From the NCBI GenBank assembly GCA_964457375.1, contig CAYWFK010000001.1:12894-76893 (forward strand): a stretch of DNA of 64,000 nt, read 5' to 3'. Made by a program: the position numbers and the translations under genes. How positions within the stretch are numbered: position 1 is the first letter of the stretch; each line of letters begins with the position of its first letter. The notes beneath the pieces are model-generated. The model saw only the letters and a list, made by a program, of their open reading frames with translations, did no database searches and was not told where the DNA came from. Below are positions 2,299-61,456 of this stretch, piece after piece. This stretch comes from an uncultured Anaerolineales bacterium (GTDB lineage: Bacteria; Chloroflexota; Anaerolineae; Anaerolineales; UBA11858).

Positions 2299-3366
2299 TT
2301 ACACAATAGGGTTATGGGTTGGTTTTTTTGTGTTGGATGTTTCAATCACCTCCTTGATTTTTTTGTCAAAGCGTTCGTTTATCGCTTGATATTGGATTTG
2401 CTGAGCGCGTGAAATCATGTTTGCTCTTGACGGAAAATGCCCGACTGGGCCGAATGATTGAATTTTGTGTTCGGCAGCTGCCTGCCCTAGTCTGGCTGCG
2501 TCTCTGATATTTTGTTTGTCGAGCATGCCGGACAGCAACCCTGCCCAAAAAGCATCCCCCGCTCCTGTGAGATCAGCCGGTTCGATGTCATTTGGCAGGA
2601 TGACAAAAGAACCTTGCTGCCGGTTCGCTACGAAAACTCCGGAATGTCCCATTGTCAAAACCACAGTTTTGACTCCCAGATCGAGGAACCGTTGTGCGTA
2701 GGATGCAGGTGCCAAACCGCTGCCGAACAGACGGCTGCTGTCATCCAGAGACGGTTTGATGATATCTACGAGTGGGAGAACGCTGCAAATTGTTTCCCTG
2801 AAATCTTCGTGGTCAGGCCAAATTTCCGGGTGGTAGTTCGGGTCAAAGGAAATGAATTGGCCGCGTTGTTTGGCGGCACGGGTGATTTGCAGGATCGTGT
2901 CACGCGCCGGATTTCTGGATAATGAAAATGCAGAAAAATGAATGATGGCGGCACTTTCGATTGATTTTGCCAGGTGGGCATTCGGTTGCAAATTAGAATC
3001 AGCGCCGCGAAATAGTATGAACTCAGGCGTGCCCGTTTTTTTTCGTGTGATCAATGCGATGGTGGTCGGGTGACTTTGTGAAAATTGCAGAAAATCCGTG
3101 GTAACTCCGCTTGTTTCCAGAAGATGTACTGCTTTTTCCCCTAACCCGTCTGAACCCAGACAGCAAGCCAGCGCAGAGGAATGACCAAGTTTTGCCATAT
3201 TCATCGCAAGGTTGGCAGGCTGCCCGCCAACGAAGGCATCGAAACGGTTTGCTTGAAAAATCGAACCGGCAATGTCTGTGGAGATTAAATCAATCAGACA
3301 TTCCCCTAGCGCAAAAAAATCGATTTTGTCATTTTTGTCGTTCATTGATTGGCTCATGCGTTTCAT
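2299..3366 (-). CDS. PfkB-family carbohydrate kinase (fructokinase/ribokinase-like)
   Basis: N-terminal FFALGECLIDLIS...GGQPANLAMNMAKLG and C-terminal DLTGAGDAFWAGLL (PfkB signature 2). Confidence 0.8.
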   Translation of the reverse strand: MKRMSQSMNDKNDKIDFFALGECLIDLISTDIAGSIFQANRFDAFVGGQPANLAMNMAKLGHSSALACCLGSDGLGEKAVHLLETSGVTTDFLQFSQSHPTTIALITRKKTGTPEFILFRGADSNLQPNAHLAKSIESAAIIHFSAFSLSRNPARDTILQITRAAKQRGQFISFDPNYHPEIWPDHEDFRETICSVLPLVDIIKPSLDDSSRLFGSGLAPASYAQRFLDLGVKTVVLTMGHSGVFVANRQQGSFVILPNDIEPADLTGAGDAFWAGLLSGMLDKQNIRDAARLGQAAAEHKIQSFGPVGHFPSRANMISRAQQIQYQAINERFDKKIKEVIETSNTKKPTHNPIV

Positions 3367-3396
3367 TCCGGTTGCGGATATATATTCCGGGAAAAG

Positions 3397-4401
3397 TTAG
3401 CGAGAAGGTGCGGCGGTTGTATTGCGGATGGTCAGCTTGATCGAAAGTTCGATTTTGCATGGTTCGTTGGAACCGCTTTGAATCATGGAAAGAAGCATAC
3501 TGGCGCCCTCGACTCCTGATTCGAATAGGTTTTGTTCGACAGTGGTCAGGTTGACATATTCTGCGTCGCGAATACCGTCATAGCCAATTACCGATAATTC
3601 TTCAGGAACTTTCAGGTTGTATTCTCTGGCAACATCCATGACACCAATGGCGTGTGAGTCACTTGCAGCGAAGATTGCTGTCGGAGGGTCTTCCAATGCA
3701 AGTAATTGTTTGGTCATATGCTGGGCGTAAAGCCTGCCCTGGTCTCCCTGTATGTGGTAAGCGGGAATGTACGGGATGTGTTCCTGATCCAGCGCTTCGC
3801 GATAACCGAGATAGCGATAGCGCATAGATTGGTAGAAAGGCGTAGTCAGGTAATCACTGATGTAGGCGATCTTCCTGTGACCGAGTTCGATGAGATGCCT
3901 GGTGGCGAGGCTGCCACCCTGAATATCGTTGACAATGATGCTGCAAAGTTTGGGGTGATAGGCGTCGATGAGTACGACAGATTGATGTTCCCGGATGAAT
4001 TTTTCCGTTTGCTCATCGGTCGGAGGTAAGGACATGATGATCAAGCCATCCACACGGGATTTGTCGGCGAGCCTTTCGAAGAAAGCATCCCGTTTTTCCG
4101 GCGTTTCTGCAACGAACAAAATCAAGTCGTAATTCGACTCATCCAGAACGGATTGGATTCCCCGAAGTCTTTCGACATAGGAAGGCAATGTGAGATAGGG
4201 GAGGATGACACCGATCGTTTGGGTTTTGCCGAGTGAGAGCTGGCGGGCGATGAGATTTGGTTTGTAGTTAAGTTCTTTGATGGCGGCGAGAACGCGTGTG
4301 CGCGTTTCTTCGCTGACCGCAGGATGATTGTTGAGTACCCGCGAAACGGTAGCAATTCCAACTTTTGCATATTTGGCAACATCACGAATGGTTGCAGTCA
4401 T
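3397..4401 (-). CDS. LacI-family transcriptional regulator
   Basis: N-terminal helix-turn-helix TIRDVAKYAKVGIATVSRVLNNHPAVSEETRTRVLAAIKELNYKPNLIARQLS, followed by a periplasmic-binding-like fold. Confidence 0.9.
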   Translation of the reverse strand: MTATIRDVAKYAKVGIATVSRVLNNHPAVSEETRTRVLAAIKELNYKPNLIARQLSLGKTQTIGVILPYLTLPSYVERLRGIQSVLDESNYDLILFVAETPEKRDAFFERLADKSRVDGLIIMSLPPTDEQTEKFIREHQSVVLIDAYHPKLCSIIVNDIQGGSLATRHLIELGHRKIAYISDYLTTPFYQSMRYRYLGYREALDQEHIPYIPAYHIQGDQGRLYAQHMTKQLLALEDPPTAIFAASDSHAIGVMDVAREYNLKVPEELSVIGYDGIRDAEYVNLTTVEQNLFESGVEGASMLLSMIQSGSNEPCKIELSIKLTIRNTTAAPSR

Positions 4402-8559: not shown

Positions 8560-10362
8560 ATGCAGCCTGTTTTGACAGTCGATTTGACAAACCGCGAGGT
8601 TGGTGAACTCGCAATTCCGGCGGATTGGTTCAATGCTTATTTGGGAGGCTCTCCGCTTGCTGCACGAATACTTTGGGACAGGTTCGATGCGGACACGGAT
8701 CCTTTATCAGCGGATGCGCCGCTTTTGTTTCTCAACGGGCTGTTGACTGGCACCAAGGGACCATCGACAAGCCGCTGGGTAGTTTGTGCACGTTCCCCGG
8801 CAACCGGATTGTGGGGAGAAGCGAATATCGGAGGGTTTTGGGGGGCGGAATTGAGAAAAGCCGGCTATTATGGGCTGCTGATAACCGGTAAAGCGCAAAC
8901 GCCGGTATTCCTCCAAATCCTGAACGACAAGGTGACGATTGAGCATGCCCGGGACTTGTGGGGATGTGATACTTATGATACCCAAAACCGGGTGCAACAA
9001 AAAACCGGGGCGGAAAAATACAGGATTGCCGTGATTGGCCCTGCCGGTGAGGCGCTAAACCGTTTCAGCCTGATATTATGTGATCATGGACGTGTAGCGG
9101 GCAGGACGGGGATGGGCGCAGTAATGGGATCGAAAAATCTTAAAGCAATCGCTGTTCGGGGAACAGGGGATGTGCCGATTGCGGAAAAGGAATATCTCGC
9201 GTTGAGGTCGGAAACCAACCGCATTTTACGCAACGACACGCTTTCGAGTACTGTGAGAGCTTTGGGTACAGCAGGGGTTGCGGATTACCTGGATTATGTC
9301 GGTGAAATGCCGAAGAAGTATTATCAATCGGGCGTGTTCGATGGCGTTGCAAAGGTTTCCGGGGCAACAATGTCGGAAACGATGCTTAAAGGGGTAGCTG
9401 CATGCCACGGGTGTGTCATCGCCTGCGGCAGGGTGGTCGAGTTGAGTGACCGGCGCAAACATAAGGGCCCGGAATATGAGACGGTTGTGGGGTTTGGGCC
9501 GAATTTGCTGATTGACGATTTGGTATTCATTACACGGATGGGCGAGTTGTGTGACCGCTACGGGATGGATACAATCAGTTTGAGCAATACGCTGGGGCTG
9601 GCGTTTTCCTTGTTCGAAAAAGGGGTGTTGACAACGGAAGACACCGGCGGATTGTCTTTGCAATGGGGAGACAAACAGGTCGTTGCTGAACTTGTGCGTC
9701 AAACAGGTGAAAACAAAGGGTTTGGGCAGGCGTTGGCAAAGGGGGCACGTTTTCTGGGAAAGAAATTCGGTTGTGAAGAAGCTGCTGTTCAGGTGAACGG
9801 TCTGGAATTGCCTTACCACGACCCTAGGGGTTCTTCGGGGATGGCGATTTCTTATGCCACCTCACCGCGTGGAGCTTGCCATAACCAGTCCGATTATTTC
9901 TTTGTCGATATTTACGGGCAAGTCGAAGAGGCTTTGGGCATGCGAAATGTAGACAGTCATGACGATATTGGAAAGATAGGGAATATTGTCATTCATCAGA
10001 ACTGGCGAACGCTTTTCAATGCGTTGGGCATGTGCTACTTTGCCAACGTTCCACCGGAATCCGTGCTTGGGCTGGTCAATGCTGCCGCAGGAACGGACCT
10101 TACCCTGGATGATCTCATGCAAATTGGCGAAAGGGGGTGGACGATCAAGCGTTTGCTTAATCGTAAATTCGGGTTGACGAAAGTTAACGACCGGCTCCCG
10201 AAACCCCTGCTTGAACCGTATCAGGATGGCGGTTCTTCCGGGTATGTGATTCCTTTTCGCGAGATGATCGAAGCGTATTATTCCGCCAGATGCTGGGATG
10301 TACAAACGGGTTTTCCCGAAAAGGAAAAAGTGCGTACGCTGGGTTTGACATGGGCGGTTTGA
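8560..10362 (+). CDS. Aldehyde:ferredoxin oxidoreductase family (tungsto/molybdopterin enzyme)
   Basis: ORF trimmed to the ATG at 8560 (MQPVLTVDLTNREV...). AOR N-terminal domain, GRTGMGAVMGSKNLKAIAVRG, a Cys motif CHGCVIACGR for the 4Fe-4S cluster, and YATSPRGACH. Confidence 0.85.
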   Translation: MQPVLTVDLTNREVGELAIPADWFNAYLGGSPLAARILWDRFDADTDPLSADAPLLFLNGLLTGTKGPSTSRWVVCARSPATGLWGEANIGGFWGAELRKAGYYGLLITGKAQTPVFLQILNDKVTIEHARDLWGCDTYDTQNRVQQKTGAEKYRIAVIGPAGEALNRFSLILCDHGRVAGRTGMGAVMGSKNLKAIAVRGTGDVPIAEKEYLALRSETNRILRNDTLSSTVRALGTAGVADYLDYVGEMPKKYYQSGVFDGVAKVSGATMSETMLKGVAACHGCVIACGRVVELSDRRKHKGPEYETVVGFGPNLLIDDLVFITRMGELCDRYGMDTISLSNTLGLAFSLFEKGVLTTEDTGGLSLQWGDKQVVAELVRQTGENKGFGQALAKGARFLGKKFGCEEAAVQVNGLELPYHDPRGSSGMAISYATSPRGACHNQSDYFFVDIYGQVEEALGMRNVDSHDDIGKIGNIVIHQNWRTLFNALGMCYFANVPPESVLGLVNAAAGTDLTLDDLMQIGERGWTIKRLLNRKFGLTKVNDRLPKPLLEPYQDGGSSGYVIPFREMIEAYYSARCWDVQTGFPEKEKVRTLGLTWAV

Positions 10363-10447
10363 CATCTAACCGTGATGAAAAACGGATTGTGCAAACCGGA
10401 TTAAAATTAGACATCGAAAAGAAATCATTAAGCAGTGAGGTGTTTTC

Positions 10448-12067
10448 ATGAAGTATGTAAGCGTCGAGGAAATGAGAACGATCGACCGGGAGTCGGACAA
10501 GAGCGGCCAGACTTATGCCATGCTGATGGACCGTGCCGGGAAAGGTGTGGCTGAGATTGTCGTTCAGAAATACGGGAACCTAAAAGAAAAACGTGTCCTG
10601 GCGTTGGTTGGGTCGGGGAACAATGGGGGAGATGCTTTGGTCGCCTGTACGTATTTGATTGAGTGGGGATGGTCGGCTGTTGTATATCTGGTGCTTCCTC
10701 GTCCCAAAGATGATCCGTTGATTTCGAAATTCGTTTCGCTGGGCGGGAAAGTCGTTTCTCCTGAAGAAGATTCCGGATACAGAAAACTCAAACGTTTGAT
10801 TGAAATTCACCCGGTTTTGCTGGATGGCATTTTAGGCACAGGTGTGCATTTGCCGTTACGCGGGAATATTCCCGATGTGTTGAAGCATGTGAAAAGAATG
10901 GCGGCAAGCAGAAAAGTTCATGTTGTGGCAATCGATTGTCCTTCCGGCGTGGATTGTGATTCCGGGGATGCAGCAAAAGAATGTTTCCCGGCTGAAGTAA
11001 CTGCGACGATGGCCGCAATCAAGCAAGGGCTGCTGCGTTTCCCTGCTTACAACCTTGTCGGTGAGATTCGAGTTGTCGATATCGGGGTGCCCAAAGGGCT
11101 GCCTGTGTATAAATCTATCCGCCGTGAGGTGGTAGACGGTGCTTTGGTCAGGCGCATTTTGCCGGAACGTCCGTTGGATGCGCATAAAGGAACTTTTGGT
11201 ACCGCATTGGTGATTGCCGGATCGGTAAATTATACGGGGGCGGCATTGTTGGCTTCGGAGGCTGCTTATCGGATTGGCGCCGGATTGGTTACCGTTGCTG
11301 TCCCTGCTGCAATTCACGGGAGTTTGGCGGGGATGCTTCCGGAAGCAACGTGGATATTGTTGCCGCACGAAATGGGTGTGATCAATGCTTCGGCTGTGAA
11401 GGTTGTCAGAGAGAATCTCGGGAAGGTTACCGGATTGCTTTTTGGCCCCGGTTTCGGGCAGGACGAAGTGACTGCGGAATTCGTTGCCAAACTGGTTGGC
11501 TATGATAACGGGAAACAGCATGCCGGGCTGGGATTTATTCCAGCACCCCAGGAAGGAAGCTCACCGAAGAAAGTCAAACTTCCACCGCTGGTTATCGATG
11601 CGGACGGGTTGAAATTGCTTGCCAGGGTACCGCAATGGCATAAGCGAATTCCGGCGATATCGGTGCTTACGCCTCATCCCGGTGAGATGGCAGTTTTGAC
11701 GGGACTGGATACGAAGGAAATCCAGGCTGACCGTGTTCGCATAGCCGAGAAGTATGCGAAGGCGTGGGGGCATGTCGTGGTATTGAAAGGCGCTCATACC
11801 GTGGTTGCATCCCCGAAAGGGAACACGGCAATCATACCGGTGGCAACGCCGGCATTGGCGCGTGCCGGTACGGGAGATGTGCTTGCCGGTTTGATTGTGG
11901 GGCTCCGGGCGCAGCGTGTTGGGGCTTTTGGCGCAGCGATAGCGGGTGCATGGATCCATGCACAGGCAGGGCTGCGTGCCGCAGTCAGGATGGGAAGCAC
12001 GAGCGCCGTTCTGGCCGGAGATGTATTGGCTTCTGTCGTCGATATTCTGGCGGAAACAGGTTCGTAG
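10448..12067 (+). CDS. nnr: Bifunctional NAD(P)H-hydrate repair enzyme (epimerase plus ADP-dependent dehydratase, YjeF)
   Basis: N-terminal YjeF_N domain (GSGNNGGDALV) and C-terminal carbohydrate-kinase-like domain (HKGTFGTALVIAGS...GTGDVLAG). Confidence 0.9.
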   Translation: MKYVSVEEMRTIDRESDKSGQTYAMLMDRAGKGVAEIVVQKYGNLKEKRVLALVGSGNNGGDALVACTYLIEWGWSAVVYLVLPRPKDDPLISKFVSLGGKVVSPEEDSGYRKLKRLIEIHPVLLDGILGTGVHLPLRGNIPDVLKHVKRMAASRKVHVVAIDCPSGVDCDSGDAAKECFPAEVTATMAAIKQGLLRFPAYNLVGEIRVVDIGVPKGLPVYKSIRREVVDGALVRRILPERPLDAHKGTFGTALVIAGSVNYTGAALLASEAAYRIGAGLVTVAVPAAIHGSLAGMLPEATWILLPHEMGVINASAVKVVRENLGKVTGLLFGPGFGQDEVTAEFVAKLVGYDNGKQHAGLGFIPAPQEGSSPKKVKLPPLVIDADGLKLLARVPQWHKRIPAISVLTPHPGEMAVLTGLDTKEIQADRVRIAEKYAKAWGHVVVLKGAHTVVASPKGNTAIIPVATPALARAGTGDVLAGLIVGLRAQRVGAFGAAIAGAWIHAQAGLRAAVRMGSTSAVLAGDVLASVVDILAETGS

Positions 12068-50091: not shown

Positions 50092-50376
50092 TTGGCAAGT
50101 TTACCTTTTAAAGCAACTCCGAATGATGATCGGGATTATCATGTTGGGGATATTGTAGAAGTATATTGTGATCACGAACAAGAAGGCGAGCGGGTTAGGG
50201 GATGGCTTGAAGGTGTGGTTGTGCAGGTAGACCTGAAAATGGTGGCTGTACAATTCCATGAGGCAGTATATCTCACAGATGGCTGGATGGTTCCGGACCA
50301 TGTTCTTTGGTGCCCCAAAGATGCATCGACGATTCGGCGTCCGAAAAAAAGACGGCGTCGCTCGTATAAAAAATAG
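50092..50376 (+). CDS. Small hypothetical protein, an SH3/Tudor-like beta-rich core with a strongly basic tail
   Basis: TTG start with AGGAG 6 nt upstream. HVGDIVEVYCDHEQEGERVRGWLEGVVVQVDLKMVAVQF, then the tail RRPKKRRRRSYKK. It sits between sufD and sufS. Confidence 0.5.
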   Translation: MASLPFKATPNDDRDYHVGDIVEVYCDHEQEGERVRGWLEGVVVQVDLKMVAVQFHEAVYLTDGWMVPDHVLWCPKDASTIRRPKKRRRRSYKK

Positions 50377-52289: not shown

Positions 52290-52323
52290 ATAAAGGCTTT
52301 CTGCCGGATTATTATGCCGGCAG
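52290..52323 (-). terminator. Possible terminator hairpin after the methyltransferase gene (weak U-tract)
   Basis: The hairpin CTGCCGG-9 nt-CCGGCAG starts 6 nt after the TAA stop. The downstream sequence is only moderately T-rich. Confidence 0.35.
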
Positions 52324-52329
52324 GTGTGT

Positions 52330-53085
52330 TTACTTTCTTCCCCAGGCGTAGAAAACCGGTACGAAAAGCACCCGTTTCCCTTGTTCTCTGGAAGCCCTTT
52401 CGGCTTCCAGGGTGGTTTTCAAATTGCGTGCGGGGATAGAAGTTTGTTTCAAATCGAGTTCGAGTACATCCGTTTCAAAATCGTTCGATGATTGTTTGGG
52501 CGCTATCTGCCATTCTCCCCCTAAAACGCCATAACCGGCATCACGAAAACCTGCATCGATGAATAAAGATGCCAGCTTTCTGCCAATCAGCGGATCGGCA
52601 CCCTGATGAAGAAGGGAATTGGTTTGCTGAGTCCCGCTGTTTTCGAGAATGGCGGGGAAATCGATTCTGCCGCCATAATCCGGTTCGGCAAATGCGATAA
52701 CGGCACCGTTTTTTTTGGTAACCCGTTTCATTTCTGCGAGCACAGCCAGAGGATTGGAGACCCATAGAAACAGGAAATGGCAAAAAACGAACGGGTAAGT
52801 TCCCGTGGAAAACGGCAGGTGTGCACCGTCAGCCTGGATGAGCGCAGCAGCAGGAATTGTTTTCCGGGCAAAGGCAAGTGCTTTGCGATCGGTGTCGATG
52901 CCAGTCAAATCGGAAAAACCGCGCCGGTGTAAAGCTTGCAGCATTGCACCGGTGCCGCAACCAATTTCAAGCCCTTTTTCTTTCGGGTTGATTGTCAGTT
53001 TATCTAACAAATATGGACGCAAGGATTGCGTCCATATAGTTTGTTGTTTGTAGCGTTCATGCCAAAACCGGATGTCTGACGCCAT
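52330..53085 (-). CDS. Class I SAM-dependent methyltransferase
   Basis: Motif I is LEIGCGTGAM, with an acidic post-I residue and a Rossmann-like layout. It is the last gene of the radical-SAM/lipid operon. Confidence 0.8.
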   Translation of the reverse strand: MASDIRFWHERYKQQTIWTQSLRPYLLDKLTINPKEKGLEIGCGTGAMLQALHRRGFSDLTGIDTDRKALAFARKTIPAAALIQADGAHLPFSTGTYPFVFCHFLFLWVSNPLAVLAEMKRVTKKNGAVIAFAEPDYGGRIDFPAILENSGTQQTNSLLHQGADPLIGRKLASLFIDAGFRDAGYGVLGGEWQIAPKQSSNDFETDVLELDLKQTSIPARNLKTTLEAERASREQGKRVLFVPVFYAWGRK

Positions 53086-53091
53086 CGGGGG

Positions 53092-54252
53092 TTATTCCTT
53101 GAGCGCATGTTTCCAAATGGTTTCCCATGAATCCCTGAGCATATTTCCGAGTACGCGGGTGATTCCCTGGGCCGGTAAAACATCTCCGTCGGGTTCTACG
53201 TAGAGCCAGGCTCTGCCTGCCCCGTCGGGCAGGCTTTCCTTGGTGGTTTCCATGGCTACGGGGTTCTTTGCTGAATACGGAACGGGGAGATCCCAAATCA
53301 AATCCATATGCAGGTCACTGACCGTTCTCGCATAATCCTGCAAGTGTGCAATCGTTTCTTGCGAAGAGGCACTCAAAGAAATTGCGTTCGTGCCCATGGA
53401 TGCCAACCGGTTCAATAAATCCGGCACGCGGTCTTCGATGTGTGGTGTAACGGTGATGTGTACGATGGTATATAAATCATCGGGCAGGATGACTTTCAGC
53501 GCGTCCCAGGATTGCTGATTGTCTGGTTCGAGGGTCATCATCAAGTGGTCGAGGCCGGATTGAAGAAGGGTTTGCAGGTAGTCTTTTTCCCGCAGCCGTA
53601 ACCCATTTGAAAGCAGTCCGGTAACTTGTCCGTTGGTTTCTGCTTTTGCAATCAATGCCGGCAAATCTTCCCGCAGTGTCGGTTCCCCTCCGGTAAAAAC
53701 GATGTGAGGAATGCCCGCATCCCATGCAGTATCGATTATCTGTTCCCATTCGTCTGTGGTGAGTTCCCGATCTACATTTTTGACAGGGGCTGCTTCAGCC
53801 TCGCTGCCATCAGGGAGCCTGTATGTGATTGCGCAGTCCAGCCGATAGGGTGCGGTAATTTTTCCGCTGTATGGGGCGGTTCTTTCGATACCGAGATAGG
53901 TAACCGGATCCAGATCGGGTACATCGATGATGGTGTAAATTTTCTGGCGCACGTCTTCGAAATCGGTTTTAACTTGTTCTTTCGAGACGTGATAGCGGGC
54001 TGCGATTTGTTCAACGGCAGTTTGCGGATCGGTGCCGCGAACGATATGATATGCATATTCCGCAGCTGTCATGTTGAGGTGGAGAACAGTAGCCGCATTG
54101 ATGATCAGGATTCCTGTCCCGTCCGGTTCGATGCGGAGGTGAAGGCGGGTTGGGTTATCTGAATCTGCCGGTGTCTGGGAATGGTATATTCCCGGGGAAA
54201 TTGGTTTTGCTCTCTTGAAGAGATTGCGGAAGAATTGGGTGGTTTTTGCCAT
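53092..54252 (-). CDS. Cysteine-less paralogue of the neighbouring radical-SAM/SPASM enzyme (pseudo-rSAM) that retains the PqqD/RRE-like N-terminal domain
   Basis: ATG at 54252 with AGGAGG 6 nt upstream. It aligns with the 57759..59189 protein (RLHLRIEPDGTGILIINAATVLHLN vs RIHLRVDPDGFGTLIVNANSVTHLN; GIPHIVFTGGEPTLREDLPALIA vs GIPHIVFTGGEPTLRNDLPALIA). CNNDCAHC is replaced by LPDGSEAE, and there is only one Cys in the whole protein. Confidence 0.75.
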   Translation of the reverse strand: MAKTTQFFRNLFKRAKPISPGIYHSQTPADSDNPTRLHLRIEPDGTGILIINAATVLHLNMTAAEYAYHIVRGTDPQTAVEQIAARYHVSKEQVKTDFEDVRQKIYTIIDVPDLDPVTYLGIERTAPYSGKITAPYRLDCAITYRLPDGSEAEAAPVKNVDRELTTDEWEQIIDTAWDAGIPHIVFTGGEPTLREDLPALIAKAETNGQVTGLLSNGLRLREKDYLQTLLQSGLDHLMMTLEPDNQQSWDALKVILPDDLYTIVHITVTPHIEDRVPDLLNRLASMGTNAISLSASSQETIAHLQDYARTVSDLHMDLIWDLPVPYSAKNPVAMETTKESLPDGAGRAWLYVEPDGDVLPAQGITRVLGNMLRDSWETIWKHALKE

Positions 54253-54286
54253 GATAACCTCCTGAGGTTTCACGTATCACGGGGAT

Positions 54287-54889
54287 TTATACCGGAATAT
54301 GGAGATAGAAGCGGACGAGAAACAATGCGAGCGCGGCACCAAGCAGCCCTAATCCGCTGCCAGTCAAGGTGTCGGTAATGAAGTGAGCGCCCAGTACAAT
54401 TCTGCCGGCAGTAACAAGCAGTGCAATTGCGGCGGTAACGTATCCGGCGTATGGCGGAAGCGCAAACAGTATGGGAAAAACCATTGCCAGCAGCCAAATT
54501 CGCAATGCATCTCCGCTGGGGAACGACGTATCTTGCGGAATTTTCGGCTGGTGGATTTCAATCGCTGACGAGCAGCGAAACGGGCGTTTGCGTTTGAAAT
54601 CCTTTTTTAAGGAGCGTTCGATGATTGCGAAAAAAAGATAAGAACCACTGACAATCAAACCGCTAGGTAGATGATGCATCGTCAGCAGGATCAGGGCAAC
54701 GATGAGCACTCCGGAAGTACCCAGTACCCATAATTCACGAAAAAACGGCAGCACAAGGCGCTTTGCTGATAAACGCGGTTGAATGGTTTCGATCCAGCGA
54801 AGTTCCCGGTTGGCGACTGCGGGTATACGGAAGGTAAAACCGGCAGCTACCATCAGAAATCCGAAAATCGTCAGGGGTGTCAGGTTCAT
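54287..54889 (-). CDS. PAP2-family membrane phosphatase (variant motif 2)
   Basis: The motifs are KKDFKRKRP (K-x6-RP), FPSGDA (PSGD instead of PSGH) and GRIVLGAHFITD (R-x5-H-x3-D). The ATG at 54889 overlaps the upstream stop (ATGA). Confidence 0.7.
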   Translation of the reverse strand: MNLTPLTIFGFLMVAAGFTFRIPAVANRELRWIETIQPRLSAKRLVLPFFRELWVLGTSGVLIVALILLTMHHLPSGLIVSGSYLFFAIIERSLKKDFKRKRPFRCSSAIEIHQPKIPQDTSFPSGDALRIWLLAMVFPILFALPPYAGYVTAAIALLVTAGRIVLGAHFITDTLTGSGLGLLGAALALFLVRFYLHIPV

Positions 54890-55809
54890 GGCAGCTGGTC
54901 TAAAAATTGGGGCCAAACCGGATAGAACATGAGCCATTGTTCCGGAGCCATGAGAATGTATTTTTCGATAACCTTGAGAACGGCTTCTCCATTGATGCGG
55001 ATTGATTCAATCAGGTTGTCTTTGTGAATCATTTCGATGGGATCGGAAATGTAAATATCGTACTCCCCGGAGGGAAGCATTCTGGGAGCGACAACGGTAA
55101 TGGGAACGTTGGCTTCGAGTGCCATGCGGATATGCCCTGCCGGAAGAGGACTGGGGTAACCAAAAAAGTTCATCATATGGCGTTTGTTCTGCACCGGCCG
55201 GTCGACTCCGGTGATGACGAAGCCTTTGTTTTTCATCCGGTTCAATGCTCTGGTGTAAAAATCTGCTGAATTGATCGGGACAATTTCCAATCCGGTCAGT
55301 TCCCGAATCTGGTTTTGGATGTGATAGCCGCTTGTCGGTTGTTCGTAAGTGAGCACCATACCCTGCAAGCCGCGATAGCCATTGGCGAGAAACACGAGAT
55401 CGAAATTGCTCATGTGCGGGCCGGCAATGAATCCGCCGATTTTTCCGTTTTGGGTCAGCTCGATCCATTTTTTTGCGTTGGGTGTCAACGGGGCAAGCGA
55501 GAGCAGTTTTTCTTTATCTGAAAACACGTGAAAGAAATCGTACAAACAACGTGCCCCATGCGTAAGCACTTTTTTGACTTGAAGATCCAGCTCTTCGGCG
55601 TTGAGCTGCTTATCGTGTATGATCCATTGGTTCAGGCGAATGGATCGGTTGATTGGTGAATTCCTGCGTTTGAGAATCAAACCGATAATCAACTTGCTGA
55701 TGAAATAGCCCATGCGGGGAGGAAAGACTTTGCCGATTGTCATTCCTGTACGAACCCCAAAGCGGCTGTTGATAATCGTCTGAATATCCATCGACGTTTT
55801 ACTACTCAT
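54886..55809 (-). CDS. LpxL/HtrB/PatA-type (lysophospholipid/lipid A-like) acyltransferase
   Basis: HX4D motif in GPHMSNFD. The length and layout are typical of the Lip_A_acyltrans family. The ATG overlaps the stop of the upstream gene (ATGA at 55806-55809). Confidence 0.65.
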   Translation of the reverse strand: MSSKTSMDIQTIINSRFGVRTGMTIGKVFPPRMGYFISKLIIGLILKRRNSPINRSIRLNQWIIHDKQLNAEELDLQVKKVLTHGARCLYDFFHVFSDKEKLLSLAPLTPNAKKWIELTQNGKIGGFIAGPHMSNFDLVFLANGYRGLQGMVLTYEQPTSGYHIQNQIRELTGLEIVPINSADFYTRALNRMKNKGFVITGVDRPVQNKRHMMNFFGYPSPLPAGHIRMALEANVPITVVAPRMLPSGEYDIYISDPIEMIHKDNLIESIRINGEAVLKVIEKYILMAPEQWLMFYPVWPQFLDQLP

Positions 55810-56426
55810 CGCGAATCAGCATCTTTTGCGGCAACGGGCGGATTTTTGATGAGGCTGTATCCTTCGACGAGTACCGGCAACCCTCTGGCGATGGTCAGAC
55901 TAATGGCGAACCAGGAAAGAATCATAGCTGTGGTGTGAATTGCCGGCTGCCAGGTGCTGCCTTGTGTCATCAGGCTGAGATCGAGCGTGAGAAAAGAAAA
56001 CGCAAGCGCTTTGGCTACACCGTACCCGGAACGCATGATTTTCGAAGATACCAGAAAGCGGCTGATTGGGGAGTGCACCTGATCGAAAGCGGCAACGCCG
56101 TTGCGCATCCCCACGGCGCGGATTGCGTCGACTGTGGTTCCCCGTGTAATGGCGATGAGGGGAATGATGATAGGTATCAAGCCGATTTGTGCAAAGACGA
56201 CCCACAAAACGATTTCCAGCGTTCTGTCTGTGGCGATATCGAGAACGCTGCCCAGCAGGCTGACTTCACCTCTTGCCCGGGCAATGATGCCGTCGACAGT
56301 ATCCATGAGAATAATCAGGATGATGAACGGGACATCCCATAACTGGAGCGTGGGATTGTTCGTGTAGAGTAATCCTACGTAAACGAATAAGAGCGGAAAA
56401 CGTGCCAAAGTAATTAAATTTGCCAT
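55806..56426 (-). CDS. CDP-alcohol phosphatidyltransferase
   Basis: ORF trimmed to the ATG at 56426 (MANLITLARF). The complete signature is DTVDGIIARARGEVSLLGSVLDIATD (D-x2-DG-x2-AR-x8-G-x3-D-x3-D). Confidence 0.85.
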   Translation of the reverse strand: MANLITLARFPLLFVYVGLLYTNNPTLQLWDVPFIILIILMDTVDGIIARARGEVSLLGSVLDIATDRTLEIVLWVVFAQIGLIPIIIPLIAITRGTTVDAIRAVGMRNGVAAFDQVHSPISRFLVSSKIMRSGYGVAKALAFSFLTLDLSLMTQGSTWQPAIHTTAMILSWFAISLTIARGLPVLVEGYSLIKNPPVAAKDADSR

Positions 56427-56430
56427 ATAT

Positions 56431-57744
56431 CTATTGTATTTCTCCAAAACGTTGAAGTGCTTTGTAAATTGCGTTGGTGCCGAAATCAACAGCTTCTACG
56501 GGAATGCGTTCGTTTGCTGCGTGTACCAGCGAAGAAAATTTGAAGTCCGGAGCCAGCTGCATGGGGGTGAAACCATAGGTTTGTATCCCCAGCCGGGAGA
56601 AAAAGCGTGCGTCTGTTACAGCTGCCAGGAAGAAAGGCATCGGATGCCCGGATGGGTCTGCTTCTTTGAGAATCTTTGCAAGCACCGGGAAAAGTGACAT
56701 GTTTGGCGCGCTGGGTCCTTTGTCGGCAGCGACGATTTCGATTTTCAGGTCATCTCCCAAGAGCTGGTGAAGTTCGGTGATCATATCTTCTGCTGAAAAC
56801 CCGGGCAGCAGTCTGCCATCCAGTTGCACGGTTATTTCCGATGGGATGACGTTGACCTTGTCCCCGCCTTTGATGATGGTCGGATTGACCGTGTTATGCA
56901 TCAGAGGATAAAACAATTCGCTGTTCTTGCCAAGAGATTTCAATATCGTATCTGTCAGGGCGGGGTTGAGAATCGATTTGATGATCATGTTTTTGGGAAA
57001 AGGCAGCGCTTCAGCCATGCCTTCGAACATCAATCTGGCAGCACTGGTAACATGCACCGGCAGCCCTTTTTGATCGAGTGTGGTGAGTGCTTTTCCAAGT
57101 TTTGCCATCGCTCCGCTGTGGTGCACGAGGGAGCCATGCCCTGCCTGCCCGTGGAATGTCAGTTTCATCCAGCAAATCTGTTTTTCTGCAACCATAATCG
57201 GATAGAAACGTTTCCCGGCTGTTTCCATGGTGAACCCACCGAATTCCCCAAAGGCGAAACGGACATCCTTGAAAAGTTCCGGATGTTCTTCGACGAGAAA
57301 GGCTGCACCGGCGGAACTTCCTTCTTCTTCGTCTGCCAGCACGGTGAGAATAACATCCCCGGGAAGTTTGACATTGTTTTTCTTTGCCTTGATGAAGGCG
57401 GAAATCATCATGGCAACGGCGCCTTTCATATCCAGCGTTCCGCGCCCCCAAATGTAGCCATCGATGATCTCTCCGCCGAACGGAGGATGTTCCCACTGCT
57501 GGTTTTTGGTGGTAACTACATCGATGTGCCCTTGCAGTAACAAAGGCGGGGCGTTGCCTTCACCTTTCAACCGGGCGACAAGATTAGGACGATGCGGGAA
57601 CTTGGCGTACGTTTGGCTGGCAATACCGTATTGATCGAGTAGTGATTTGATCCAGGCGATTGCCGCTTCTTCGTTACCGGGCGGGTTGGTGGTATCGAAG
57701 CGTACCAGGGTTTGCAGGATGTCGATGGGTTTGAGAGCGTTCAT
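56431..57744 (-). CDS. M20-family metallohydrolase (peptidase/deacylase)
   Basis: GHIDVV, GRGTLDMKG, LADEEEGS and GHGS. The dimerisation-domain layout is typical of ArgE/DapE/CPG2 relatives. Confidence 0.75.
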   Translation of the reverse strand: MNALKPIDILQTLVRFDTTNPPGNEEAAIAWIKSLLDQYGIASQTYAKFPHRPNLVARLKGEGNAPPLLLQGHIDVVTTKNQQWEHPPFGGEIIDGYIWGRGTLDMKGAVAMMISAFIKAKKNNVKLPGDVILTVLADEEEGSSAGAAFLVEEHPELFKDVRFAFGEFGGFTMETAGKRFYPIMVAEKQICWMKLTFHGQAGHGSLVHHSGAMAKLGKALTTLDQKGLPVHVTSAARLMFEGMAEALPFPKNMIIKSILNPALTDTILKSLGKNSELFYPLMHNTVNPTIIKGGDKVNVIPSEITVQLDGRLLPGFSAEDMITELHQLLGDDLKIEIVAADKGPSAPNMSLFPVLAKILKEADPSGHPMPFFLAAVTDARFFSRLGIQTYGFTPMQLAPDFKFSSLVHAANERIPVEAVDFGTNAIYKALQRFGEIQ

Positions 57745-57758
57745 GCGTGCACCTTTTC

Positions 57759-59189
57759 TTAGTCGAAAGTATTCAGGATGACAAAATCTTTGTCCAGTTC
57801 GTCCGGGTCGGGTATCTTGTCGAATGGTTCCAGTACGGGGTGATTGGCTTCAAGGGAAAGCGGGCAGCCGCCGCCGCATTCGACAAGCAGGGAGCAGGAT
57901 TTGCAAACCTTGGGTACGTAATTCCGCTCTCGCAAATTGACCGCCAGTTCATGATTCCAGATCGATGTCCAGGGGTCTTTGAGGATATTCCCCAATTGGA
58001 CGTAATATGATTGGCAAGGAAGAACACCGCCATCCGGTTCGATGCACATATTGTAAAGGGCTGCGGTGCAACCTTTGACGCCTAATCCGTATTGTGTCGG
58101 ATCGAAATGGCAGTATTGTGTCGGGGTATACCAGATTAATCGCTGGTTGTATTTCGATGTTTTTTTGTGAGCCAGTTCAAGAAGGGAGGGGAGGACTTGA
58201 TCATCCAGCCCTGTACCGACTGTTTTCCCGTGCCCCGAATAAATCAGGGCATTCAAACCGACTGTGGGTATGCCCAATTCTCCGAGAAAATCCAGGGTTT
58301 CACCAAGTTTGCGGTAATTCGCCTGGAGCATTGTTGTGTTCGTCATGAGATAGAGTTTGCTCGCGAGGATGTTTTTCAAGCCTTGCAAGGTTTGTTTCCA
58401 GGCACCTTTTTTGTTTACCATAAAGTCGTGAATTTCCGGGTCGTGGGATTCAAAAGTGACTTGTACATGGTCCAGTCCGGCGTCGATCAGTTCCTGAAGA
58501 AATTTCTCATCGCTCAATCGTCTTCCATTGGTGTTCAATCCGGTGATTTGCCCGTTATTTTCTGCGTGGGCAATCAATGCCGGCAGGTCGTTTCGCAGGG
58601 TGGGTTCTCCGCCGGTGAAAACGATGTGGGGAATACCAAGTTCCCACGTTTTGTCGATGACCTGTTTCCATGCTTCTGTATCCAGTTCGGGGTAATTCCG
58701 GGCACGGGCGTTGTAGCAGTGGGCGCAGTCATTGTTGCAGCGGTAAGTAACTGCCAAATCCATACGGTAGGGGGCTGTCGGTCTGGCGCTAAAAGGGGCA
58801 TCGATTTCAAGATCGTCGAAGGTGCAGATTGCGCATTGAGCCGGGTCCAGCAAAGCATCGATGCGGGCAGTCAAATTGGCGAAGTCTTTCTTTGCAGTTT
58901 TTGGAGAAACCTGAAAAGCTTTTGTCAGTCTGGAGATGACGTTTTTTTGAGGATAACCTTGTAAATAGGCATAAGCCATCCAGGTGGCGGTAGGGTTGAG
59001 ATGAGTGACAGAATTGGCGTTGACAATCAGCGTTCCGAAACCGTCCGGGTCGACCCGCAGGTGAATACGGCTTTTCGATTGGGGTCCTTCGTTGCGGAAA
59101 TGGTGAATGCCGACGATTTGCCTGATAAGAGGCAAATCGTCGGTGGTTTCTACCGTGTGGTTTTTTTTGATCCCGAACAGATTCATCAT
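57759..59189 (-). CDS. Radical SAM/SPASM-domain enzyme with an N-terminal PqqD/RRE-like domain (RiPP-maturase architecture)
   Basis: The 4Fe-4S/SAM motif is CNNDCAHC, with FTGGEPTLR. The SPASM cysteines are GCTAALYNMCIEPDGGVLPC...GNI...CKSCSLLVECGGGCP. The first ~115 aa have a beta-beta-beta-alpha-alpha-alpha pattern (HLRVDPDGFGTLIVNANSVTHLNPTATWMAYAYLQG...VISRLTKAFQVSPKTAKKDFANLTARIDALL). Confidence 0.8.
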   Translation of the reverse strand: MMNLFGIKKNHTVETTDDLPLIRQIVGIHHFRNEGPQSKSRIHLRVDPDGFGTLIVNANSVTHLNPTATWMAYAYLQGYPQKNVISRLTKAFQVSPKTAKKDFANLTARIDALLDPAQCAICTFDDLEIDAPFSARPTAPYRMDLAVTYRCNNDCAHCYNARARNYPELDTEAWKQVIDKTWELGIPHIVFTGGEPTLRNDLPALIAHAENNGQITGLNTNGRRLSDEKFLQELIDAGLDHVQVTFESHDPEIHDFMVNKKGAWKQTLQGLKNILASKLYLMTNTTMLQANYRKLGETLDFLGELGIPTVGLNALIYSGHGKTVGTGLDDQVLPSLLELAHKKTSKYNQRLIWYTPTQYCHFDPTQYGLGVKGCTAALYNMCIEPDGGVLPCQSYYVQLGNILKDPWTSIWNHELAVNLRERNYVPKVCKSCSLLVECGGGCPLSLEANHPVLEPFDKIPDPDELDKDFVILNTFD

Positions 59190-59204
59190 TTTACTCCGGA
59201 AGGG

Positions 59205-60866
59205 TTAGCGGCCGCCGCCGGCACAGGCACAGGCACATCCGGCACAAGCGCAGGCGCAAGCGCAACCACCACCGCCGCCATGGTAACCGCCGGAAGAAGA
59301 CGATACCGGAGCCGGGTTGGTTTTTTCGGTAATGCCGCTGGTGAAGCTGGTAATATCACCGACCACATTGCTCGAAAAATTTTGAAGGCCGGTAACAACC
59401 GAAGCTGCAAAAGTACTTCCGGGCAGCGTAGGCATGGAGAAACTTCCGCCGCTTCCCGATGTCGATGGCTGGGAAGATGACGTTGCCGGGGATCCGTGCC
59501 AACCCGGATCATAACGGTTCCACCATACCGGTACGAAAACCGGTCCCTGACTGAAGACGTCTTTGGTTCGGTCTTCGAAATCCTTGTCGAGCATTGTCCA
59601 TCCCATATACTCGTCGTATTTTTTACTTTTCACTTCGGGGGTATCCGCCGCTTTGATTTGCTGCCATGCCTTATCCATAATTTTTTCGTAATAGGCAATG
59701 GTTTCCTTGCGGCTGAACCCTTTCATTTTCTTGCTGACGCTTTTGATTAAATCGATGATCAATGCCTGGAGTTTCTTTTTTCTCCTTGCCGGAGATTTTT
59801 CGTCGAAGGCTTCGAGAAAATCGATTTCGTATTTCCGCAGACCGGCAGGGCGCGGTTCGGTCGTTTTGATTTTTAGAGGCTCTTTTGCGATGACTTTTGC
59901 AGCATTCTTTTTGATTACGCTGAAAAGTATCATGGTCAGAATCTTGTCGACCGGATGTTCCATCAGAATGGCTGCTTCGACTGCTGTCAAACCGCGCTTG
60001 ATGCCATGCCCTTCGATACTGAGCTTGGGCGGCAGGTATTGTAATTTGCGTTTTTTGCTGGTCGTCTTACCTAACCAGGCGAAGAAAGCGAACATTGCCA
60101 GCACGGAACCCCAGCATGTGCAGCCGAAGATGGTATCTTTGCTTATCCCCAGCGTTTCGAAAAAGCCCGGGGTGACGATCGCAGTTTTGGGGACATAAGT
60201 TTTGGGGAAGGATGCCCCGAACTTGTAGGTTGAATGCCCGTTGGCTTGCGGATTGTGCCACGCGTAGACGACGCGTCCATGTTTGTCAAGATAGGTTTCC
60301 GGGGTTTGCGGAAAACCGTCAGGGGCTTTATGCCATTTGGGTTCTTCCGGTTTTACCCCCGGTGGCAGGTGAAAAACAACCGTCAGGTCTGTCGTTCCAT
60401 AGACATATTCGTCTCCGAACCAGGTGGGGGCAAAAACTGCGCTGGCGTATTCCTTGTTTTTGGAATCCGTGTAGAGAACATGCGTGATGCCTTTGATGTA
60501 GAGATGAACCTTTCCGGTATCTCCGGGCTGGATAGCATGACTCCCCAGTCCCAAAGCAACGCCGTTATCCACATAGGGGGAAGTATCGATGTCCGTTATC
60601 GTCAATCCGTCGACATCTGCTGAAACATTGGCAATGTCGAAATGTTCGTTTGGAAAACCGACATCGACATAATCGATGGGATCTGCACTGGTGCTGTTGG
60701 AGAAGATGAAAACGTAGTCGATGGAGAGCGTGCCATCTTTTTCCCAGTAGGCGTTTACGATTTCTTTGTCGAGGCTGAAATAGTATGTTTGGGATAATGC
60801 CGGTGAAGGAATGGCAAACAGGAATATCAGCAAAAGTAACCCGGCGATGATTTTCTTTTTGAACAT
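59205..60866 (-). CDS. DUF2207-like membrane protein ending in a Gly-flanked Cys-Ala repeat tail
   Basis: ATG at 60866 with GGAGA upstream. Signal peptide MFKKKIIAGLLLLIFLFAIPSPALSQ, then an extracytoplasmic beta-rich domain (YYFSLDKEIVNAYWEKDGTLSIDYVFIF), a TM segment, a Lys-rich region, and the C-terminus ...SSSGGYHGGGGGCACACACAGCACACAGGGR. Confidence 0.7.
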   Translation of the reverse strand: MFKKKIIAGLLLLIFLFAIPSPALSQTYYFSLDKEIVNAYWEKDGTLSIDYVFIFSNSTSADPIDYVDVGFPNEHFDIANVSADVDGLTITDIDTSPYVDNGVALGLGSHAIQPGDTGKVHLYIKGITHVLYTDSKNKEYASAVFAPTWFGDEYVYGTTDLTVVFHLPPGVKPEEPKWHKAPDGFPQTPETYLDKHGRVVYAWHNPQANGHSTYKFGASFPKTYVPKTAIVTPGFFETLGISKDTIFGCTCWGSVLAMFAFFAWLGKTTSKKRKLQYLPPKLSIEGHGIKRGLTAVEAAILMEHPVDKILTMILFSVIKKNAAKVIAKEPLKIKTTEPRPAGLRKYEIDFLEAFDEKSPARRKKKLQALIIDLIKSVSKKMKGFSRKETIAYYEKIMDKAWQQIKAADTPEVKSKKYDEYMGWTMLDKDFEDRTKDVFSQGPVFVPVWWNRYDPGWHGSPATSSSQPSTSGSGGSFSMPTLPGSTFAASVVTGLQNFSSNVVGDITSFTSGITEKTNPAPVSSSSGGYHGGGGGCACACACAGCACACAGGGR

Positions 60867-60944
60867 GGACATTCTCCAAATGAACAAACTTAACCGATAG
60901 AGTTTAATACACTATACGCAGTATCGAAAGATAAGTTGTAATGC

Positions 60945-61316
60945 TTACCATTTGGGGTCTTCGGTAAGTTGATAAGTTGTATGGCAGTAGGGGCAGGTAA
61001 TCACCGGAGCGCCGGCAACCATCTTGATATCACCCTTGGTCAACGCTGCACCGCAAGATTTGCATTTCAGAGTATCCATATTGACATTGGACGGCAAATC
61101 GATGTTGAGGGTGACATTTTCGCCGTTGCCAGCGGCAGACATTGCTTTTGATTTGCCCAGAAACCAGATAATGCCGAAGCCAATGCCTACACTGATAACA
61201 CCGACGATGAGCCAACCGATTTGCCCTTGCGGGCTGAATGTTGCCCAGATGAAGAGAATGCCAAAGAAAACCAAGATAGCAGCGAAAATGTACCCGATAA
61301 TTTTACCGGCTGACAT
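60945..61316 (-). CDS. Small membrane protein (2 TM segments) with a C-terminal Cys4 zinc ribbon
   Basis: ATG at 61316 preceded by GGAGG. Two hydrophobic helices are followed by CKSCGA...CPYCHTTY. Confidence 0.6.
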   Translation of the reverse strand: MSAGKIIGYIFAAILVFFGILFIWATFSPQGQIGWLIVGVISVGIGFGIIWFLGKSKAMSAAGNGENVTLNIDLPSNVNMDTLKCKSCGAALTKGDIKMVAGAPVITCPYCHTTYQLTEDPKW

Positions 61317-61420: not shown

Positions 61421-61456
61421 AAGAAAAAATGGCTTCTTGAGCATCAAGAAGCCATT
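61421..61456 (-). terminator. Rho-independent terminator of phoU
   Basis: The minus strand reads AATGGCTTCTTGA-tgc-TCAAGAAGCCATT followed by TTTTTCTTT. Confidence 0.85.

Follow-up and report, generated by a model that had tools for sequence, protein, structure and literature searches.

To our knowledge, radical S-adenosylmethionine (rSAM) chemistry guided by a RiPP recognition element (RRE) has almost exclusively been reported for short, secreted peptide natural products, and its closest described agents are the RRE-dependent rSAM/SPASM maturases of RiPPs (peptides that are ribosomally synthesised and modified post-translationally), such as SkfB, CteB, AlbA, PapB and SuiB. Here, we describe an operon of nine minus-strand genes (g1 to g9, positions 52330-61316) in a 64,000-nt stretch of DNA from an uncultured Anaerolineales bacterium (the window), whose third gene encodes an enzyme with the same RRE, CX3CX2C core and CX2CX5CX3C SPASM plan. 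RiPP maturases are the best structural and among the best sequence matches of this enzyme, g3, and a Cys-rich putative substrate is encoded directly upstream of it. Those systems act on a short leader-core peptide, however, whereas here the putative substrate is the C-terminal end of g2, a conserved membrane protein of about 555 aa. Conserved protease or exporter genes are not found alongside, the NCBIfam equivalog cut-offs are missed by a wide margin, and the enzyme is partnered by a paralogue lacking the cluster motifs (g8). We propose that the operon is a composite, a reading that we consider fairly probable: a protein-tail maturation module, in which g3, probably with g8, would modify the g2 tail, together with a lipid cassette that was inserted once. 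Given the lack of a short precursor and of a conserved protease or exporter, we do not place the locus among the sactipeptide or ranthipeptide RiPPs; 81 open reading frames (ORFs) selected by their tail pattern yielded no convincing free-standing precursor.

The nearest conceptual precedents are QhpD with QhpC and anSME with the sulfatases, in which SPASM-type rSAM enzymes modify Cys in a functional protein. QhpD introduces several thioether cross-links at Cys residues of QhpC, a subunit of quinohemoprotein amine dehydrogenase, and anSME, which is among the structural matches of g3, oxidises Cys or Ser in full-length sulfatases. Nevertheless, g3 does not belong to these families at the sequence level, and the tail motif, the membrane protein, and the pseudo-enzyme and zinc-ribbon partners have no counterpart there. 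The PQQ (PqqE/PqqD/PqqA) and mycofactocin (MftC/MftB/MftA) systems resemble the proposed module in their RRE-guided radical chemistry near a peptide C-terminus, and PqqE is the best match of g3 (NCBIfam 1.1e-40; PDB 1e-17). Accessory methyltransferase or peptidase genes also occur in clusters of this type. In contrast, g3 scores well below the cut-offs of PqqE (139.7 against 381) and MftC (90.3 against 265), its RRE is fused rather than separate, and the tail carries no Glu/Tyr or Val-Tyr motif. Pfam annotation of the genes in the neighbourhoods sampled showed no member of the PqqB, PqqC, MftD or MftE families. A precedent for an rSAM fold without CX3CX2C is given by the TIGR04347 pseudo-SAM/SPASM proteins of Haloarchaea, which both paralogues match weakly (g3 at 1.7e-31, g8 at 1.6e-11); g8, however, reaches 44 bits against a cut-off of 525 and has lost its SPASM cysteines as well.

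The genes and elements of the proposed maturation module, all on the minus strand, are as follows.

60945..61316, minus strand: g1, a small membrane protein with two transmembrane (TM) segments and a C-terminal CxxC...CxxC zinc ribbon, a core component (ORF; weak zinc-ribbon Pfam matches).
59205..60866, minus strand: g2, a single-pass membrane protein, the proposed substrate (ORF, AlphaFold2 (AF2) model and hydropathy).
59307..59432, minus strand: conserved linear stretch of g2 that is read as leader-like (residues about 486-527), a candidate RRE-binding region.
59208..59264, minus strand: tail CACACACAGCACACAGGGR, the last 19 codons of g2, with seven Cys alternating with Ala (homologue conservation).
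57759..59189, minus strand: g3, an RRE (PqqD-like)-radical SAM-SPASM enzyme, the proposed catalytic maturase (Pfam, motifs, AF2 and Foldseek).
Roughly 58848-59111, minus strand: RRE domain of g3 (family-level PqqD matches, AF2).
53092..54273, minus strand: g8, a pseudo-rSAM paralogue of g3, an accessory core component in Anaerolineales (alignment, motif counts).
52330..53085, minus strand: g9, a class I SAM methyltransferase, an accessory core component (Methyltransf_11, 1.1e-20).

The first line of evidence for the module is synteny. The nine window proteins were compared by tblastn with 80 loci from species-representative genomes, and gene presence was counted at the 47 loci whose sequence extends 9 kb or more downstream of g2. 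At these loci, g1 lies immediately upstream of g2 in 46/47, while g3 is present in 45/47, g8 in 46/47 and g9 in 43/47; the remaining genes are found in far fewer (g5 in 8/47, g6 in 10/47, g7 in 8/47 and g4 in 3/47). In an independent sample of metagenome loci picked by the DNA pattern of the tail only, g3 follows g2 in 51/52 loci, and none of the 26 loci with at least 4.5 kb downstream carries the lipid genes. A sequence-only reading of this DNA had joined the rSAM pair, the tail gene and the phospholipid genes in one system; the adjacency of g3 and g2, for which that reading had set a synteny check, holds in both samples (45/47 and 51/52), and the lipid genes are not a general part of the arrangement. 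The conserved part of the operon is g1, g2, g3, g8 and g9, found in many Chloroflexota and some archaea. Among species-representative genomes the g2-type arrangement has at least 432 matching stretches, and thousands of metagenomic sequences carry it too; Leptolinea sp. HRD-7 (L079) is a cultured carrier. The literature that we searched describes neither the tail motif nor the g2 family nor this combination of genes.

The divergent versions retain the same nucleus. One locus (L104) has the minimal g1-g2-g3 trio by itself, and the trio is also encoded by contigs L208, L209 and L210, of which L208 and L209 are archaeal and carry Alba and TBP genes; one divergent g2 cluster has members annotated as Aigarchaeota. 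On L208, the rSAM gene starts 1 nt past the g2 stop, its product is 45% identical to g3 over the full length, and the small protein matches g1 at E=1e-16. The pseudo-rSAM g8 is missing from the archaeal loci and from L104. A divergent bacterial lineage (L212) has the order rSAM, paralogue, tail protein, and its paralogue (2668-3951) has lost CX3CX2C and kept the SPASM CX2CX5CX3C, a stage of degeneration that differs from g8. L212 also has multihaem-cytochrome neighbours and a tail in permuted form, CACACAGCACACACAGGGR.

At two loci (L014 and L073), g3 is not directly after g2, and an active RRE-rSAM gene lies nearby on the opposite strand. In this lineage the pseudo-rSAM gene directly follows g2, the opposite-strand enzyme has a Cys/Gly-rich C-terminal extension, GGGGCSGCSGSC, and both loci encode a tail-less paralogue of the g2 cytoplasmic domain. 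The stretches concerned are L014 15351-17057 and 14455-15351 and L073 14579-16228 and 13400-14401 (all minus strand).

The second line of evidence is the tail itself. As the sequence-only reading had it, g2 ends in a Cys-Ala tail whose stop codon lies 15 nt ahead of the g3 start. The tail is exact in 112/120 close homologues, with one CA unit fewer in 6 more, and it is kept in 84/84 g2 homologues encoded within the fetched loci. Across 85 loci, all tail codons vary synonymously, with TGC and TGT about equally used, all four Ala codons and six Arg codons represented; selection therefore acts on the peptide. In a metagenome scan that used only a degenerate DNA pattern of the tail as its query, the 81 tail-bearing ORFs recovered comprised 71 g2-like sequences, 9 that were too truncated to judge and a single short complete ORF (73 aa) on a 1.1-kb contig; no convincing case of the tail on a non-g2 scaffold or as a free peptide was found among the 81. 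The same scan recovered identical tails even where the protein body is only 29-32% identical to the window g2. A 19-residue tail that is more conserved than its carrier protein points to a housekeeping protein modification that is unnamed in databases or papers.

The most distant g2 representatives show a tail grammar of (Cys-Ala/Val)n with optional G, S, VS, DS or HA breaks, nearly always terminating in CACACAGGG[R]. Non-Cys positions are nearly as constrained as Cys: Ala or Val only, fixed G/S breaks and a GGGR end. Upstream of the tail, g2 has a conserved linear segment with the pattern P.LPG..FAAS...F...VVG....FT..IT.KTNP.P, in which P486, L488, P489, G490, F493, A494, F515, T520, T523, N524, P525 and P527 are invariant columns. 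This segment is conserved although its predicted local distance difference test (pLDDT) score in the AF2 model is below 60, and we infer that it is leader-like.

Some loci carry more than one tail protein. Tandem tail-protein genes with one common downstream rSAM gene occur at L024, L078 and L163, and the tandem pair at L211 (7001-8851 and 8953-10602) combines a variant tail, CVSCACACACVCVSCACACAGGGR, with a canonical one. A g2 paralogue of about 770 aa with the same tail occurs in some genomes, and other genomes have two tandem tail proteins; the large or tandem coordinates are L024 7627-9804 and 10001-11506, L078 7588-9207 and 10001-11575, L163 (two matches) and L086 4448-6751.

The third line of evidence is the make-up of the enzymes. 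g3 matches Radical_SAM (PF04055) at 98.6 bits against a cut-off of 29.5 (E 5.9e-28) and SPASM (PF13186) at 41.4 bits against 21.5 (E 1.8e-10). Its cluster motif, CNNDCAHC, and its SPASM motif, CKSCSLLVECGGGC, are both present, with CX3CX2C found in 69/70 orthologues and CX2CX5CX3C in 68/70. All 72 NCBIfam matches are under their cut-offs, including the best (PqqE, 139.7 against 381.35), and we accordingly rejected the named rSAM/SPASM equivalogs (PqqE, NirJ, AhbD, MftC, ScmE, GeoRSP, SkfB and others), none of which reaches its cut-off. PqqE and SkfB are the nearest solved relatives by PDB sequence match, and the top Foldseek matches are SkfB, SuiB, CteB and PqqE, with about 430-460 aligned columns and the N-domain covered. 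The protein is about 60-68% identical across hundreds of species, as for a housekeeping gene.

An N-terminal PqqD/RRE-like domain had also been read from the sequence, with the corollary that the N-domains should score as such. At the family level they do: 21/26 N-terminal domains of the g3 and g8 families match PqqD (PF05402), the best at 7.3e-10, and a joint N-domain profile matches TfuB1, a lasso-peptide RRE protein, at 1.6e-5. For the window proteins taken singly the claim stands less well, as the g3 N-terminus alone gives no PqqD match and that of g8 is below the cut-off (E=0.002). In the AF2 model, strands at residues 27-64 of g3 are followed by three helices at 66-114, which is the RRE topology. 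A CxxC at g3 residues 119-122 (about 58824-58835), in the linker between RRE and rSAM domains, is conserved in at least 90% and could be an extra metal site; it is missing from g8 and from some members of the cassette-bearing clade described below (L025, L030 and L034).

g8 is a paralogue of g3 (37% identity over 396 aa, E=1e-79) with a single cysteine in the window protein, in keeping with its earlier description as cysteine-less, and originated as a duplicate of the neighbouring active enzyme. Its Radical_SAM match is partial (48.6 bits). Across its family, CX3CX2C is found in 1/65 members and the SPASM CX2CX5CX3C in 0/65, whereas GGE[P/A] is present in 65/65, as it is in 70/70 of the g3 family. 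Since the cluster motifs are lost and GGE[P/A] is retained, g8 is a pseudo-enzyme that has retained the fold. A Tes/MSS-type lipid rSAM was considered and rejected, there being only a partial 31.8-bit match of g8 and a distant GDGT-MAS match; a published paper on bacterial membrane-spanning lipids deals with families other than these.

The membrane partners complete the core. g1 was described earlier as a small 2-TM zinc-ribbon protein and fits that description, with weak zinc-ribbon Pfam matches, two hydrophobic segments and GKSK after the second. g2 combines a signal/anchor helix and an ectodomain folded as a beta-sandwich with a single TM helix, a helical domain in the cytoplasm, a disordered linker and the Cys-Ala tail. 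Its AF2 model has a pLDDT of about 95 in the ectodomain, a TM helix at 250-283 followed by KKRK, and a disordered C-terminal region. Hydropathy gives no further TM-grade segment after this helix, and because no later segment is hydrophobic enough for membrane crossing, the tail is predicted to be in the cytoplasm. g2 has 4598 homologues at E<=1e-5, forming 1055 clusters at 50% identity, all of them unannotated and lacking a Pfam domain, and it is conserved along its full length rather than in the tail alone. No Pfam or NCBIfam family was matched by g2, and the precomputed Pfam field is blank for all 120 of its close homologues. The label "DUF2207-like" that had been attached to it does not hold: PF09972 gives no signal even at E<=10, whether the query is the full protein, one of its domains or a divergent member, and we reject this identity. 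In Foldseek, the ectodomain (residues about 35-235, within window 59205-60887) matches ribophorin I/Ost1 in its luminal domain and M1 aminopeptidases in their N-domain, at E of about 1e-6 to 1e-7, a resemblance in structure only. The ectodomain also has a weak Pfam TRAP_beta match (E=0.05). A fusion of g1 and g2 in divergent metagenome loci was likewise rejected; the g1 matches fall in another reading frame than the long tail ORFs, whose extra length is therefore upstream ORF extension.

How might these proteins work together? We propose that they form an ancient, previously undescribed protein-tail maturation module. In it, g2 would be a type-I-like membrane protein that presents its disordered C-terminal region, leader-like segment and tail, to the cytoplasm. 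The PqqD-like domain of g3 would dock on the leader-like segment, and g3 would perform radical chemistry on the Cys-Ala repeats of the tail. Cys-derived thioether cross-links would be the most likely chemistry, since the nearest characterised relatives are thioether/cross-link maturases and the target is Cys-rich; epimerisation or another H-atom-abstraction reaction may also be involved. Cross-linking on the tail had been one of three options offered by the sequence-only reading and is the one that fits best. g8, with all three Fe-S sites lost and its RRE-like domain and GGEP region kept, is probably a non-catalytic partner or scaffold that may act in a complex with g3. g9 probably adds a methyl group, and g1, with a cytoplasmic zinc ribbon, would be an obligatory membrane partner of g2. 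In its most specific form, the proposal is that an rSAM/SPASM enzyme puts a radical-modification ladder, either consecutive thioethers or alternating D-residues, on the (Cys-Ala)n tail of a full-length membrane protein in bacteria and archaea, often with a pseudo-enzyme, and that a coupling to lipids may exist in one clade; this version we hold more tentatively, as a possibility that falls somewhat short of an even chance.

Several points weigh against tail maturation by g3. The modification is deduced from comparative data, and g2 is a large conserved protein rather than a disposable precursor. The sampled neighbourhoods share no dedicated leader protease or exporter, and the N-domain of the window g3 alone fails Pfam PqqD. 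At least two loci have the tail and not the enzyme: L039 (CP070785, a chromosome; 9590-11713) has g1 and g2 with an intact tail and no g3, g8 or g9 within 10 kb on either side, and the tail-protein pair at L211 has no SPASM rSAM in its 7-kb flanks. Lastly, Cys residues typically alternate in metal-binding (metallothionein-like) sequences as well, so that the tail could be a set of ligands rather than a substrate.

This last point leads to the alternative that survives best, although we consider it unlikely: that the tail is a metal- or Fe-S-binding element rather than a substrate, g2 being a membrane scaffold or sensor and the rSAM/pseudo-rSAM pair being recruited through its RREs to another substrate, or to receive or hand over clusters. 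CXCXC spacing recalls metallothionein motifs, g1 contributes a zinc ribbon, and suf Fe-S assembly genes adjoin the operon in the window's clade; the conservation of g2 over its full length and the lack of a conserved leader protease or exporter also favour such an element. The suf adjacency is missing in other clades, however, and RRE domains, which both paralogues carry, bind substrate peptides in known systems. The tail grammar also speaks against it: the tight constraint on the Ala/Val positions, the G/S breaks and the GGGR end is more easily understood as recognition by an enzyme active site than as plain metal ligation.

If the five core genes form a tail-maturation module, what are the other four genes doing in the operon? 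Their features are listed below.

56431..57744, minus strand: g4, an M20 metallohydrolase, sporadic cargo and not core (PF01546, 97.6 against 24.6; NF005913, 394.6 against 382).
55806..56426, minus strand: g5, a CDP-alcohol phosphatidyltransferase of the lipid cassette (CDP-OH_P_transf, PF01066, 52.7 bits against 22, E 8.1e-14).
54886..55809, minus strand: g6, an LpxL/PatA-type acyltransferase of the lipid cassette (Lip_A_acyltrans, 50.1 against 22.3, E 3e-13).
54287..54889, minus strand: g7, a PAP2 phosphatase of the lipid cassette (PAP2, PF01569, 53 against 27.2, E 3.8e-14).

When profile-HMM (hidden Markov model) searches were run as a check of the domain labels assigned from the sequence, those of g3 to g9, PqqD apart, all exceeded the Pfam cut-offs, the M20 call for g4 passing that of the NCBIfam subfamily too. 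The full motif claimed for g5, DX2DGX2ARX8GX3DX3D, is present as DTVDGIIARARGEVSLLGSVLDIATD and conserved in 14 orthologues, and the HX4D motif of g6 is HMSNFD, with pH.S.FD conserved among orthologues. Of the three PAP2 motifs (KX6RP, PSGH and SRX5HX3D), g7 has the first and third intact. Motif 2 of g7 is PSGD rather than PSGH, and K..R.RP, PSGD and R...G.H...D are conserved in all 12 orthologues; the PSGD may mean an altered chemistry, for example that of a phosphotransferase. None of the named NCBIfam equivalogs reaches its cut-off with g5 (archaetidylinositol phosphate (AIP) synthase, the best named relative, 45.8 bits against 180; phosphatidylinositol phosphate (PIP) synthase, 30.3 against 170; PgsA, 35.1 against 109), and the score of g6 for the phosphatidylinositol mannoside (PIM) acyltransferase PatA is 52.5 against 209.

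The cassette alone resembles the actinobacterial phosphatidylinositol (PI)/PIM core (PgsA1 PIP synthase and PatA) and AIP synthase. A CDP-alcohol transferase gene is followed by a PatA-type acyltransferase gene, g5-g6 mirroring the actinobacterial pgsA1-patA order; AIP synthase and PIM acyltransferase are the best named matches; and the PAP2 enzyme g7 could serve as a PIP phosphatase. On the other hand, the scores are well under the cut-offs, the operon is without a mannosyltransferase or inositol-phosphate synthase, and the PSGD of g7 is unusual. We describe g5 to g7, with g4 nearby, as what would be a PI-type head-group and acylation cassette.

The lipid trio is a lineage-specific insertion with a single-clade origin. 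The genes are found in 8-10/47 species-level loci and 0/26 tail-pattern loci and are not present in the archaeal loci, L104 or L212. A neighbour-joining tree of g2 and g3 groups the loci that bear the cassette in a single monophyletic clade, whose only two members without it are contigs that end just after g3. In other clades its g3/g8 slot, and likewise the g8/g9 slot, is occupied by other genes, for PAS-like and DUF155-like proteins, secreted HExxH proteins, an M28-like lipoprotein, a peptidase, a nitroreductase and others. Examples of slot cargo are three tandem secreted HExxH proteins of about 350 aa, a DUF155-like protein of about 334 aa and a PAS-like protein of about 113 aa (10 loci); cargo was seen in the g8/g9 slot of L060, L064 and L069 and in the g3/g8 slot of L058, L071 and L080. 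The M20 gene g4 is found at L023, L028 and L037 (the 3/47), plus L087 and the window, and it varies independently of the trio, L028 having M20 without lipid genes. In the proposed history, the cassette would have been inserted once, in one Anaerolineales clade, into a permissive g3/g8 junction, and would be co-transcribed with the core and dispensable for core function.

The headline of the sequence-only reading was a single pathway that combines the rSAM enzymes with phospholipid synthesis. As a general account this does not hold, with the lipid trio missing from about 80% of species-level loci and from the archaeal and divergent versions; of the three options it offered, a lipid pathway is disfavoured and "adjacent cassettes" best describes the lipid genes. 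An integrated peptide-lipid pathway, in which the lipid enzymes would work on the same product as the rSAM pair in this lineage, could apply solely as a function of the window's clade. Such a product might be the Cys-Ala tail bearing a lipid, or a phospholipid to which a tail fragment freed by the M20 hydrolase has been added.

There are reasons to take this narrower form seriously. Placed between g3 and g8, the cassette has gaps or overlaps of 4 nt, and it is retained in all sufficiently long members of a deep clade. Four g5 orthologues were sampled for context, and 3/4 lie in exactly this g3/g8 slot (60-73% identity) with window-like PhoU and Suf flanks. g5 is outside all named CDP-alcohol transferase equivalogs, which leaves its acceptor unconstrained by them, and at L086 the slot holds a second acyltransferase and a sulfotransferase. 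Such stable retention, together with translational coupling through ATGA overlaps, counts against a wholly independent cassette, and because it is retained, coupled and mostly in the slot, it may have a clade-specific functional link to the core.

Against these stand the many cores without any lipid gene, the slot's PAS-like, DUF155-like, peptidase and nitroreductase occupants in other genomes, and the independent variation of M20. The fourth g5 orthologue (L213 8001-9889) is in a g5-g6-g7 trio (63%, 40% and 37% identity) with no g1-g3 in 8 kb upstream. CDP-alcohol transferases, moreover, use alcohols, not thiols, as an established family chemistry. On balance we regard an integrated peptide-lipid pathway as improbable, more so than a metal-binding tail. 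The L213 trio adjoins a DDE transposase, and the contig ends inside g7.

A chance juxtaposition with a functionless low-complexity tail, for which one might cite the low-complexity Gly/Cys-rich C-termini of other membrane-protein families, deserves almost no credence and appears refuted so far as comparative data allow, given the exact tail kept through synonymous codon turnover over 85 loci and across domains of life and the near 100% adjacency of g1, g2 and g3.

The layout of the operon agrees with its earlier description. All nine minus-strand ORFs are present at the coordinates first read for them, and the junction sizes were borne out when recomputed from the ORF coordinates with the best-supported starts: 78 nt for g1/g2, 15 nt for g2/g3, 14 nt for g3/g4, 4 nt for g4/g5, a 4-nt ATGA overlap for g5/g6 (55806-55809) and another for g6/g7 (54886-54889), 13 or 34 nt for g7/g8 according to the choice of start, and 6 nt for g8/g9. 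The start proposed for g1 (ATG at 61316) is favoured by a GGAGG Shine-Dalgarno sequence 5 nt ahead, and that of g2 at 60866 is consistent with a 553-aa database protein (P0121). The terminator that had been assigned to phoU and the hairpin beyond 52330 were both recovered, and they bound the operon as follows.

61428..61456, minus strand: intrinsic terminator of the upstream phoU gene, a 13-bp stem then a T-run (61456-61428), the 5' operon boundary.
52301..52323, minus strand: 7-bp hairpin ctgccgg-N9-ccggcag with a T-rich tract, past the g9 stop, the 3' operon boundary (read from the sequence).

Neither an Rfam RNA family nor a tRNA was detected within the window. Outside the operon, sufD and sufS flank an ORF of 94 aa whose C-terminus is strongly basic, KKRRRRSYKK (window 50092-50376, plus strand), and L002, L085 and L087 have an unannotated ORF of 91-95 aa at the equivalent position.

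What would the tail-maturation module mean for the wider family of rSAM enzymes? The fusion with phospholipid genes is a lineage-specific insertion and is not evidence for a peptide-lipid pathway. In the core, the RRE-rSAM architecture is tied to what is predicted to be the cytoplasmic tail of a conserved membrane protein, in both bacteria and archaea. If true, g2 would represent a new class of membrane protein, one that is modified post-translationally and has a structural or redox element built in, rather than a secreted RiPP. The module would thus provide a defined substrate-enzyme pair for new rSAM chemistry, along with a natural pair of active enzyme and pseudo-enzyme.

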